A stretch of DNA of 64,000 bases, from positions 25,307 to 89,306 of the forward strand of contig CAZAJO010000004.1 in the NCBI GenBank assembly GCA_964485575.1, read 5' to 3'. The DNA is from an uncultured Gammaproteobacteria bacterium (GTDB lineage Bacteria > Patescibacteriota > Microgenomatia > Levybacterales > GWA1-39-11). Under the pieces are notes generated by a model. The model had not been told where the DNA came from and did no database searches. It was given only the letters and a program-made list of their open reading frames with translations. Below are positions 4,767-7,760 of the stretch, piece by piece. Positions within the stretch are counted from its first letter, which is position 1; the number at the start of each line of letters is the position of its first letter. Made by a program: the position numbers and the translations under genes.

Positions 4767-7760
4767 TTAAACAACGAAATTCACGATCTTACCTGATACA
4801 TAAATGACTTTCTTAATATCTTGACCCTCTAATTGTTTCAAAACCGCAACTTTAGCTTTATTTTCAATCAGATTTCTATCTTCAAGATCTTGGCTACTAA
4901 TTTCTATTTCTCCCCTTCTTTTTCCGTTGATTTGCACAGGAATTACTGTTGATGATGAAATAAGATGCTTTTGGTCAAATTCAGGCCAATTACTCAAATG
5001 TATTGATCCCTCCCCAATTCCACTCCAAATCTCCTCTGTCATATGGGGAGCAAAAGGAGCAAGAAGCCTGAGATAAACCCTAACTTCTTCCTTGCTTAAT
5101 TCTTGATTGTTAACTCTTACCTCCTGGTTGAGGTAGTTGTACCACTCCATGAGCTTTGCGATTGCAGTGTTGTAGCCAAATTCGGATATATCTTTAGTGA
5201 CCCCCTGGATGGTTTTATGCATCATCATCGTCCTTTCATTACTCAGTTGTACTTCATCCTTTGATGATTGGGAAAGAAGTTTCCAGACTTTTCGTAAAAA
5301 TCTGTTCATACCCTCTATCCCACTATCCCTAAAGTCTCCACCGTCAGAGTATGGGCCTATGAACATGAGGTAAGTACGAAGAGTATCAGCCCCATATTTA
5401 CCGATGTACTCGTCAGGTACAACGACATTTCCTTTGCTTTTACTCATCTTTGCTCCATCCTTTATGATGAGACCATGAGCAAAGAAAGTAGAAAATGGTT
5501 CCTCGAAGTTCAAATACCCCAAATCGGACAGCACCATCGTGACAAAACGTGAATATAAAAGGTGTAGCACACTATGTTCTGCTCCGCCAATGTACATGTT
5601 TACTGGTAGCCATTTTCTAGTTGTTTCTATATCAAAAGGTGCTGTAGATACATCAGTTGAGGGGTATCTGAGGAAATACCAGCTACTATCAAGGAAAGTA
5701 TCTGACACATCGGTCTCTCGAGTTGCATCTCCCCCGCAAGATGGACAGGTAGTCTTGTAAAATTCAGGATGATTGGCAAGTGGAGCTTTTCCTGTTCCCA
5801 TTGGTTTCCAATCGGAAACTGATGGTAAAAGTACAGGAAGTTCAGCTTCAGAAACCGTAAACCATCCTTCCATGCCTGTTACCTCAGCTTTACCATTTTT
5901 TTGACAAGTTGAACAGAAGATCATAGGTATTGGCGGCCCCCAATACCTTTGTCGGGAAATGAGCCAATCCCTGAGGTGGAAATTGGATTTTCTAACCCCA
6001 ATTTCTCTTTTTTCAAGGTTTGAAAGAACTTGATCCATTTGCTCTGGCATTACAAGATCATTCCAGGTATCAGAATTTGTTAAGATCCCTTTTCCCGTAT
6101 AAGGCTCAACTTTGAACTCATCAGAACTATTTGTTGTATCAAACCCAAGCTCAATTGCCCGAGCTACTCCATGCTTTAAAAATCTTTCCCAATGTCTTAT
6201 ACCCTCAAGATCCGGATACGACAGCCAATTTTCAAGAATCTCTTTTGGCGTTCTCCAAACAAGCTCAAAATTCTCGTGCTCTTCATGTTTTGTAGGTAAT
6301 AAATCGTTGTCTTCTAGAATTACAAGATATCCTGAAGCTTTCGCAACCCTATATGACTTTCGCCCTCCACTGAAGAAATGAGGGTAGGCATCTCCAATCT
6401 TTTCAACGTGTTTGAAATTATGAAGCCCACTTTCTTCTGTCACTTCCCGCATTACGCCTTTTTCCTCATCTTCTCCTTCTTCTGTTCCTCCGGCAAATAA
6501 TCCTAGGAAGTTATCCCGCTCCGGCCAGAGCGCGACTGCATATTTTTGAGTCCTTGGATCAAATATCACACCTGCTCCTCCATCGCGTCTTTCTTCACCA
6601 TCATGAGGATTTCCATTTTCAGGCATGATAACCTGTTTTACAGCTAGGTTATATTTCTTGGCAAATTCAAAATCACGGCTGTCATGAGCAGGAACTGCCA
6701 TGATTGCCCCAGTTCCATAGCCTGAAAGTACATAGTCAGCGATCCAAACAGGAATCTCCTCATTATTTACAGGATTTATCGCTGTAAGGCCTGAATCAAC
6801 TCCAGTTTTTTCTTTCCCCTCCCCAGTTCTCTCAATATCAGTCTTATCCTTAACTTTTTCTATGTATTGCCTTACCTCTTTACTATCTAAAGTTGAAACA
6901 AGGCTGTGTTCGGGCGCAATAACCATGAATGTTGCACCATACAACGTATCTGGCCGTGTTGTAAAAACCTTCAAACTTTCCTCTCGATCTTTGATTTTGA
7001 ATTCAACCTCCGCTCCTTCACTTTTACCTATCCAATTTGTTTGGGCAATTTTGACCTTGTTCGACCAATCAAGACCTTCAATATTTTTAAGTAGTCTGTC
7101 TGCATATTTAGTAATCCTAAAGAACCACTGTTCAAGATTTTTCTTCTCCACTTTTGTGCCGCAACGCTCACACGACCCATCTATAACTTGCTCATCAGAC
7201 AAAACCGTTAAGTCTTTTGGACACCAATTAACAAGAGCGGTATCACGATATGCAAGGCCAGCTTTAAAAAGTGTTACAAATAGCCACTGGGTCCATTTAT
7301 AGTAATTTGGATTATATGTTTCGACCGTACGTTGCCAATCAAACGAGTTTCCAATACTTCTCATTTGCCTATAAAAGTTCTTCTCAGCAATCTCTGCCTG
7401 TTCTTTAGGGTGTCTTCCTACTTTTAAGGCATAGTTTTCACTATGAATACCAAATCCGTCTAACCCGATAGGCTCAAGAACATCCTTCCCTTGCATGCGT
7501 TGAAATTTTGCGTATACATCGGCACCAGTAAATGCGTACATATTGCCTACATGAAGCCCCTCTGCTGAAGGGTATGGGAACATCATGAGGTTAAAATATG
7601 GGTTCTTTGCTGCTTTTATATCAGGGCTAAAAGTCCTGTCACTCTCCCATTTCTCTTGCCATTTAGCCTCAATATCTGCTGGTATATATTTATTTTCTGC
7701 TGACTTTTGCTGCTTCATATAGACATCCTCTATTCTATCAAATCCAAGTACAAACTTCAC
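4767..7760 (-). CDS. leuS: Leucyl-tRNA synthetase carrying an internal NUDIX-hydrolase-like insertion; the true start is more likely the Met at 7718
   Basis: Class I HVGN (HIGH) and KMSKS motifs, and the CP1 editing motifs TTRPDT and [9 protein letters not shown]. A perfect Nudix box [23 protein letters not shown] lies between the editing region and the RDW/RYWG segment. Confidence 0.93.
   Translation of the reverse strand: [997 protein letters not shown]

Follow-up and report, generated by a model that had tools for sequence, protein, structure and literature searches.

Bacterial leucyl-tRNA synthetases (LeuRSs), typified by the structures from Thermus thermophilus (1H3N/2BYT/2BTE) and Escherichia coli (4AQ7/4ARC), consist of a class Ia core, a connective peptide 1 (CP1) editing domain with T-rich and HDxRD motifs, an RDW..RQRYWG motif, a KMSKS loop, and anticodon-binding and C-terminal domains. 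Here, we describe a LeuRS gene, leuS, on a 64-kb stretch of a patescibacterial contig, CAZAJO010000004.1 (the window, i.e. all 64,000 nt that were analysed). Its product shares all of these elements with the canonical enzymes (phmmer E = 3.6e-218) but differs from them in carrying a Nudix domain in place of the CP1 loop at T. thermophilus residues 364–375, in having no leucine-specific domain, and in reading HVGN at the HIGH signature. A precedent for a bacterial class Ia aminoacyl-tRNA synthetase (aaRS) with an added catalytic domain is NF040702 ('isoleucine--tRNA ligase, N-acetyltransferase domain-containing'), in which host, guest domain and position are all different. In a 2026 survey of domain insertions, the CP1 editing-domain family PF13603 appeared in 213 events exclusively as the inserted module and never as the host (PMC13114784); in the leuS product, by contrast, it is the LeuRS editing domain that acts as the host, with an entire, probably active, second enzyme inside it. 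Both parts of the protein are well-known families, while their combination and topology are unusual.

No characterised Nudix enzyme is close to the insert. E. coli RppH (4S2Y/7SP3), the Aquifex hydrolase of diadenosine tetraphosphate (Ap4A; 3I7U) and T. thermophilus Ndx1 are only 14–21% identical to the insert, which falls far below the family cut-offs, and identity is equally low to the nucleoside diphosphate (NDP)-sugar hydrolases Ndx2 (2YVM) and Bdellovibrio NudF (5C7Q). Mycobacterial MutT1/Rv2985, a Nudix hydrolase of dinucleoside polyphosphates (ApnA) and 8-oxo-GTP, is fused to a histidine-phosphatase domain. This protein is among the top structural neighbours of the insert (~20% identity), and its pairing of Nudix with histidine phosphatase recurs in one relative discussed below (P0347), but it is a two-domain stand-alone enzyme rather than a synthetase-nested one. 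The closest counterparts are free-standing Patescibacterial Nudix proteins (P0040, P0098; 'NUDIX hydrolase [Candidatus Paceibacterota]'), which are 45–54% identical to the insert over the whole length and have the same PE.G..(R)DGG strand, Nudix box and HW..F....RAIELG.D helices. These are encoded by separate genes with no conserved link to leuS, whereas the insert described here is nested in CP1.

The gene occupies an uninterrupted open reading frame (ORF) of 997 codons at 4767..7760 on the minus strand, which opens at a GTG at 7760. A database protein of 983 aa encoded on a 93-kb contig (P0121) is 100% identical and begins at the ATG at 7718, and, following this protein, the ATG at 7718 is taken as the leuS start. 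Residue numbers refer to the 997-codon ORF, unless marked M15, in which case they count from the ATG at 7718. From the N- to the C-terminus of the product, the features are:

4767..7718, minus strand: leuS coding sequence, 983 aa from the ATG at 7718; a complete bacterial LeuRS with a nested Nudix domain
7542..7553, minus strand: position of the HIGH signature, reading HVGN (motif reading)
6603..7037, minus strand: CP1 editing domain, part before the insert (Pfam PF13603, aa 242-386, E = 6.9e-67)
6945..6962, minus strand: T-rich motif TTRPDT within CP1 (motif reading)
6105..6626, minus strand: nested Nudix module, aa 379-552 (M15 365-538), equal to an entire free-standing Patescibacterial Nudix protein of ~170 aa
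6231..6569, minus strand: Pfam NUDIX match (PF00293, aa 398-510, 33.8 bits)
6423..6491, minus strand: Nudix box, 23 residues with the catalytic REx2EE helix, aa 424-446
5973..6104, minus strand: CP1 editing domain, part after the insert up to RDW (aligns from T. thermophilus LeuRS residue 376 and to insert-free relatives)
5937..5972, minus strand: RDW motif segment, 12 residues, return to the catalytic core (motif reading and T. thermophilus alignment)
5436..5450, minus strand: KMSKS loop (exact motif)
4890..5222, minus strand: anticodon-binding domain (Pfam PF08264, aa 847-957, E = 2.7e-20)

Pfam searches of the ORF return a class I synthetase core, a LeuRS editing domain, a NUDIX domain and an anticodon-binding domain. 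The position of the NUDIX domain can be read from two alignments. In the first, the PF13603 profile covers positions 2–148 and is broken off at position 148 of 185, with ~45 further CP1 residues following the insert. In the second, a phmmer search against PDB sequences, M15 9–365 aligns to T. thermophilus LeuRS 2–363 and M15 539 onward to residue 376 onward, such that 173 residues stand in for the 12-residue CP1 loop 364–375. Because the T. thermophilus alignment resumes within CP1 after the insert, the Nudix domain lies inside CP1, and not between CP1 and the catalytic core. It is thus nested in a surface loop of CP1, and CP1 in turn interrupts the Rossmann fold: a domain in a domain in a domain. 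A first-pass annotation, made from the letters of this DNA, had placed the insert between CP1 and the RDW motif, which has to be corrected in this respect. Its other anatomical claims hold. The ~165 extra residues that it counted agree with the 173 residues above and with the stretch from KQVI to RDW, which spans 218 aa here and 52–84 aa in nearly all insert-free relatives. The Nudix box, which it put at about 6425..6495, lies at 6423..6491 and on direct reading matches G-x5-E-x7-R-E-U-x-E-E-x-G-U at all positions. The two other strings that it quoted are found as well, the 24-residue CP1 string at 6627..6698 and the 18-residue strand context of the box at 6525..6578. The similarity also extends well beyond these 23 residues: PF00293 is matched over profile positions 9–120 of 134, with 33.8 bits against a gathering cut-off of 21.1 (E = 3.9e-8). 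That a complete Nudix domain sits in an otherwise intact LeuRS, as was proposed, is borne out by Pfam, by the structure model, by fold searches, and by a hidden Markov model (HMM) of the free-standing Nudix proteins, which the insert matches with 224 bits.

The AlphaFold2 (AF2) model of the insert has a mean predicted local distance difference test score (pLDDT) of 93.3 and, together with fold searches, identifies the alpha/beta/alpha sandwich of the Nudix fold. In the full-length model (75-sequence alignment; mean pLDDT 88.4, predicted template modelling score 0.78), the Nudix blocks score 86–97 and the two junction blocks 88–92. The N-terminal linker of the insert is essentially zero and the C-terminal linker ~9 residues. 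The nearest structures are NDP-sugar, ApnA and nucleoside triphosphate (NTP) hydrolases, and the structural neighbours as a whole cover many specificities at the low identity given above. The Nudix fold is certain; the subfamily is an uncharacterised one.

The host retains the hallmarks of an ordinary LeuRS. Its product scores 895.6 bits against the NCBIfam equivalog TIGR00396 (leuS_bact; cut-off 548.4), and the full-length model superposes on bacterial LeuRS structures with TMt 0.80–0.84. The synthetase motifs, which the first-pass annotation had described as intact, are indeed present (KMSKS, TTRPDT and HDxRD), with the HIGH position reading HVGN: Asn replaces the second His, and among 119 aligned relatives HVG is invariant and the Asn is found in 116 (Ser in the other 3). 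Across 37 insert-bearing and 82 insert-free relatives, TTRPDT, the HDxRD-region motif, KMSKS and the HIGH position are kept with rare substitutions only, and the CP1 editing-site motifs (the T-rich motif and the Asp of HDxRD) are kept in 37/37 insert-bearing relatives. Judged from its sequence, the host appears to be a canonical, functional bacterial-type LeuRS with an intact Rossmann core, CP1 post-transfer editing site and anticodon-binding domain. The leucine-specific domain (T. thermophilus ~579-634) is without counterpart at window ~5450..5460 (M15 752-755), where the alignment skips from T. thermophilus residue 578 to residue 635 over three residues, immediately ahead of KMSKS.

The nested module corresponds to a family of free-standing proteins. 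A 184-residue segment used as query returned ~170 proteins, nearly all free-standing and 165–200 aa long, that are 44–54% identical to the insert over ~90% of its length (45–54% for P0001-P0120). These come from metagenome-assembled genomes labelled Paceibacterota, Nomurabacteria or Patescibacteria group. The whole free-standing protein aligns to the insert, with the IPEFGIKRENEERRDGG strand at its N-terminus and the HW..F....RAIELGYD..S helices at its C-terminus, and all residues specific to this family (type A, see below) are present in the insert: G394, Q405, Y407, E453, H461, R471, H495, E496, W502, H523 and W524. The nested module derives from, or can be exchanged with, the free-standing gene family. 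The neighbourhoods of 50 free-standing loci contain no conserved partner and no adjacent leuS; the commonest neighbours, named by sequence reading, are another Nudix gene (9/50), a methionine aminopeptidase (8/50) and an Ndk-like gene (8/50). No further member of this family is encoded in the 64-kb window.

Conservation within the fused copies points to a working enzyme. In 28 type-A fused copies, E430 (the E-x7 position), E439, E442 and E443 are invariant (28/28), and R438 is found in 27/28. These copies also keep the residues that are (near-)invariant in 119 free-standing proteins, including Q405, Y407, E453, H461, R471, H495, E496, W502, H523 and W524. Deviants, in one or two copies, occur at five positions only: Q405, R438, L538, G539 and one further tail position. 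The catalytic REx2EE is likewise kept in most copies of the other insert types (B–D). Between the window and an 83%-identical relative with the insert (P0122), Nei–Gojobori dN/dS is 0.087 for the insert, 0.082 for CP1 and 0.061 elsewhere in the gene, ratios that are approximate because dS is saturated (1.3–1.9). By these values, purifying selection acts on the insert as strongly as it does on CP1. Since every catalytic and family-specific residue is kept and the domain evolves under purifying selection, the Nudix module is very probably an active Mg2+-dependent pyrophosphohydrolase.

The same architecture is widespread among relatives. At least 37 of the 120 closest LeuRSs have a Nudix domain at this loop: 38 carry an insert of 150–185 aa there, 37 of which are Nudix, and a strict Nudix box is found in 34 of the 38 aligned inserts. 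In GTDB species genomes, 14/67 family loci lie inside ORFs of LeuRS length, in records from Falkowbacteria, Jorgensenbacteria, Paceibacterota and Parcubacteria. The placement of the window's organism in Patescibacteria comes from named, more distant relatives with Levybacteria and Patescibacteria labels. The distribution is patchy even among close relatives. P0122 and P0124 (84% identical in the LeuRS body, insert absent) share with the window the gene order of a 206-aa gene, leuS, a comEA-like gene and comEC. Alignment of the P0124 DNA to the window stops at 6661 and resumes at 6077, where 130 nt take the place of the 583 nt of the window; the corresponding P0124 loop is short and acidic and contains no remnant of a Nudix domain. 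Among insert-free relatives in general, this CP1 loop is hypervariable in both length and sequence.

The inserts belong to several types, of which type A is that of the window. Type A inserts score 199–252 bits against the HMM of the free-standing family, while other types score 33–78 bits. A type-B insert used as query retrieves a second set of free Nudix proteins, which are 156–168 aa long and 42–54% identical to it. In all-against-all BLAST comparisons, type A inserts are 51–66% identical to the first free-standing set (free A) and ~30% to the second (free B), types B and C are 35–50% identical to free B and ~30–35% to free A, and type D is close to neither. Going by these comparisons, this one CP1 loop is home to no fewer than two Nudix subfamilies, which have separate sets of free-standing relatives. 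Neighbour-joining trees, built from the LeuRS body and from the Nudix domains, show a patchy insert distribution, with two large LeuRS clades that are wholly type A and with the window and P0122 nested among insert-free LeuRSs. As such trees are subject to rooting and rate artefacts, neither capture versus fission nor the number of events is read from them, and the claim is limited to at least two subfamilies.

Other domains are also found in the CP1 loops of these synthetases. In P0192 (991 aa), the same loop is filled by a nucleotidyltransferase domain resembling aminoglycoside-2''-adenylyltransferase (PF10706), and a LeuRS fragment (P0311) has a DUF559 endonuclease-like domain beside its Nudix domain. 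Many related LeuRSs (including P0138, P0140, P0142, P0168, P0218 and P0229) carry an alpha/beta-hydrolase of ~175 aa (PF00561/PF06821) within another CP1 loop, which immediately precedes TTRPDT and is equivalent to window ~6969..6992 (M15 243-250). Both the alpha/beta-hydrolase and the Nudix domain are present in P0161, P0198, P0230 and P0239 (~1200–1260 aa).

When 1.84 billion 50%-cluster representatives were searched exhaustively with phmmer, only 145 relatives of the insert were found. Of these, 68 match the window LeuRS outside the Nudix insert (LeuRSs or fragments) and 67 are short proteins or fragments; about half of the sequence diversity of the family is found in LeuRS. Counted among the 68 is P0347 (L082:4001-8038), an IleRS-like protein with a Nudix domain inside CP1, between the WTTTPWT and GIVHSAPGFG editing motifs, and with an additional histidine-phosphatase domain (His_Phos_1). 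Four relatives are RNase PH proteins (P0296, P0310, P0316 and P0320 (L081:3203-4477)), in which the Nudix domain sits between RNase_PH and RNase_PH_C. One of these, P0316, has on reading the type-A hallmarks EKRDG..FNP..QKYGV and ..KAIQLGLD. The remaining hosts include a ValRS-like N-terminal fragment with Ham1 and Nudix domains and an ArgRS-like fragment in which Nudix precedes the DALR domain (listed as P0395 and P0414), as well as one GNAT/peptidase M17 protein. The RNase PH and IleRS-like fusion genes sit on ordinary contigs with housekeeping neighbours. What the synthetase and RNase PH hosts have in common is that they all dock the tRNA acceptor end.

From these observations, we propose that one polypeptide would combine two enzymes, a LeuRS and an in-frame nested, Patescibacteria-specific type A Nudix hydrolase. 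The conserved catalytic residues and the dN/dS of 0.087 argue for bifunctionality, and the reading that we favour, with some confidence, is that the LeuRS is bifunctional and that its Nudix module, as an active nucleotide pyrophosphohydrolase, is coupled to the enzymes of the tRNA acceptor end. The fusion would couple a house-cleaning activity, both physically and stoichiometrically, to these enzymes. As the specificity residues are identical, the substrate would be the same as for the free-standing proteins. Our choice of a small free nucleotide as this substrate is a tentative one. The evidence leans that way in that the domains are acidic (pI ~5.5, net charge ~-7), the free forms are without RNA-binding parts, and the nearest structures are NDP-sugar, ApnA and NTP hydrolases. 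If so, the substrate would most probably be a small adenine-nucleotide derivative, either a dinucleoside polyphosphate such as Ap4A or an ADP-X/NDP-type compound. That aaRSs are the main source of ApnA, which Nudix Ap4A hydrolases clear (PMC4734340), also leans toward a small free nucleotide.

Several observations weigh against this interpretation, in particular against its substrate. The best match of the insert in a PDB sequence search has an E-value of only 0.03, so that a substrate is not transferable from a solved relative, and structural neighbours of such low identity across many specificities make any substrate call weak. No characterised subfamily threshold is reached in NCBIfam: the best Nudix family is RppH, with 21.5 bits against 118 (NF001936/NF001938; the other 16.5 against 116), and TIGR00052 (ADP-ribose/YffH-AdpP; 16.1 bits against 79.55) and NF001299 (the NAD(+) diphosphatase NudC; 17.6 against 158) are below their cut-offs as well. 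For this reason, Ap4A or a cap as substrate remains speculation. Two other fusion partners of this Nudix branch, RNase PH and an ArgRS-like protein, should furthermore not make Ap4A: the former, a phosphorolytic exonuclease, forms no aminoacyl-adenylate, and activation of arginine by ArgRS depends on tRNA. This speaks against the clearance of an aaRS by-product at its source. The gene neighbours of the free-standing copies give no clear pathway signal, with the top neighbour at 9/50 loci. The occurrence of unrelated domains (alpha/beta hydrolase, PF10706-like and DUF559) in the CP1 loops of relatives means that the loop may simply be permissive. Pre-transfer editing of aminoacyl-adenylates by the Nudix domain was considered and set aside, as an aminoacyl-adenylate is not a nucleoside diphosphate-X. 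It is an acyl-phosphate of a nucleoside monophosphate, and such compounds are hydrolysed by HIT-family rather than Nudix enzymes.

Among the alternatives, an artefact (misassembly, a chimeric contig, a pseudogene or an intein-like selfish element) has a negligible chance of being correct. At first sight, the GC-rich island just upstream of leuS could suggest a chimera, but this island is itself conserved in relatives from independent assemblies, which argues against misassembly. Moreover, the reading frame is unbroken, the GC content of the insert matches that of the remaining gene, an identical protein is encoded on a 93-kb contig, and the 83%-identical P0122 comes from an independent assembly with the same gene order. 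With dozens more independent assemblies of the same architecture and a dN/dS of 0.087, both misassembly, which the first-pass annotation had named as a point to check, and a pseudogene are rejected. An intein is rejected on direct reading: the insert begins KQVI|MPENG and has neither an N-terminal Cys/Ser nor a C-terminal His-Asn with Cys/Ser/Thr. We regard the anatomy of the fusion and the selection for it as almost certain. A different possibility is that a permissive loop captured the Nudix domain without any mechanistic coupling, in which case it would keep an independent housekeeping job and the fusion would only guarantee co-expression in a reduced genome. The hypervariability of the loop in insert-free relatives, the unrelated domains nested in the CP1 loops of relatives (in the same loop for the PF10706-like domain and in the second for the alpha/beta hydrolase), the absence of the insert from the syntenic P0124, and the identical residues of fused and free copies are all in keeping with such a capture. 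It leaves unexplained, however, why the guests should so often be Nudix domains and the hosts tRNA enzymes: two or more Nudix subfamilies with free-standing relatives of their own share this loop, further tRNA enzymes contain the same branch, and about half of the family diversity lies in LeuRS, which is more than random capture would lead one to expect. The short, confidently modelled junctions also suggest a fixed orientation. We consider uncoupled capture unlikely.

The hosts themselves raise another possibility. Since all of them dock the tRNA acceptor end, a role on blocked tRNA ends is kept alive, in which the Nudix domain would remove a pyrophosphate-containing block and restore a chargeable tRNA; the candidates are a CCA 3'-pyrophosphate made by toxic small alarmone synthetases (toxSAS), a 5'-triphosphate, or an NAD-type cap. 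That toxSAS damage tRNAs by pyrophosphorylating their CCA ends is established (10.1101/2021.04.30.441581; PMC11559606). Besides free-standing or fragmentary short proteins, nearly all contexts of the branch are enzymes that bind the tRNA acceptor end, and in LeuRS and the IleRS-like protein the Nudix domain lies in precisely the domain to which the CCA end is brought when it is proofread. The histidine phosphatase of the IleRS-like fusion could take off the phosphate left by a Nudix cut, and RppH is, though weakly, the top-scoring named family for both types A and B. However, a net charge of ~-7 weighs against a tRNA substrate, the free-standing copies have identical specificity residues yet no RNA-binding extension, the count of LeuRS hosts is inflated by vertical inheritance, and a search of PADLOC-DB offers no link to defence, its sole match being to PDC-S07 over 26 residues (E = 0.0069). 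To our knowledge, no Nudix enzyme has been shown to act on tRNA 3' ends. On balance, action on the tRNA end seems doubtful, and its broader form, in which the whole branch would be a tRNA acceptor-end repair or deprotection enzyme that Patescibacteria repeatedly wired into acceptor-end-docking proteins, is distinctly unlikely. If it were true, some fusions would pair this Nudix enzyme with a second nested hydrolase (a histidine phosphatase or an alpha/beta hydrolase), and CP1, besides proofreading the attached amino acid, would be the place where the tRNA itself is checked and repaired. Less probable still is a non-catalytic Nudix fold that CP1 uses to sense nucleotides, for regulation or as a structural part. 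Known regulators with a Nudix fold, NrtR for example, function in this way, and NrtR, NadQ and AraR are among the structural neighbours of the insert, which in the model also seems rigidly packed on CP1. Such regulators typically lose their catalytic residues, whereas REx2EE and the Glu of G-x5-E are (near-)invariant in 28/28 type-A fused copies and kept in most of types B–D.

Under the favoured reading of a bifunctional LeuRS, the recurrence of Nudix domains at one loop, and in RNase PH and other class Ia synthetases, would indicate that selection has linked nucleotide pyrophosphohydrolysis functionally to the handling of tRNA ends in organisms with minimal genomes, a link that has not been characterised so far. 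The fusion may provide a testable handle on an uncharacterised, Patescibacteria-specific Nudix family, and a naturally permissive LeuRS loop could serve engineered domain insertion. Full-text literature searches found no description of a LeuRS–Nudix, aaRS–Nudix or RNase PH–Nudix fusion, which agrees with the first-pass annotation, to whose author no LeuRS–Nudix fusion was known. The sequences themselves are public: JGI labels one as the fusion 'leucyl-tRNA synthetase/ADP-ribose pyrophosphatase YjhB (NUDIX family)', and one NCBI pipeline label is 'class I tRNA ligase family protein'.

The GC-rich island directly upstream of leuS spans 7904..8990, with a GC content of 0.50–0.59 against ~0.40 around it. 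It contains two ORFs:

8043-8498, plus strand: ORF of 151 aa, Pfam Clp_N (E = 1.4e-10)
8565-8897, plus strand: ORF of 110 aa, PP-binding/ACP-like (E = 1.9e-12)

The second of these is followed by a GGCGCCC..GGGCGCC hairpin near 8925-8945. The island DNA is conserved in a syntenic contig (L078, ~73%) and partly in another (L079), and no genes are called there in those contigs. At its leuS-proximal end, read on the minus strand upstream of leuS, lies an element of ~110 nt (7904..8013) that is 90% identical between the window and L079/L080 and conserved in L078, with diverging flanks. RNAalifold predicts 26 pairs in this element, with one compensatory change among only three distinct sequences. 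Rfam contains nothing that matches it at E <= 1, and JGI metagenome contigs scanned for exact patterns gave no match either. Candidate roles for the element are those of a leuS leader, a small RNA and a promoter region. In the whole 64-kb window no Rfam family reaches its gathering score, and hence no tRNA, rRNA or riboswitch was found at that threshold; a dedicated tRNA finder was not run. A second GC-rich island, at 41001..42000 (0.595), coincides with an ORF at 41245..42177 on the plus strand (310 aa, no Pfam match), and this island may have been acquired horizontally.

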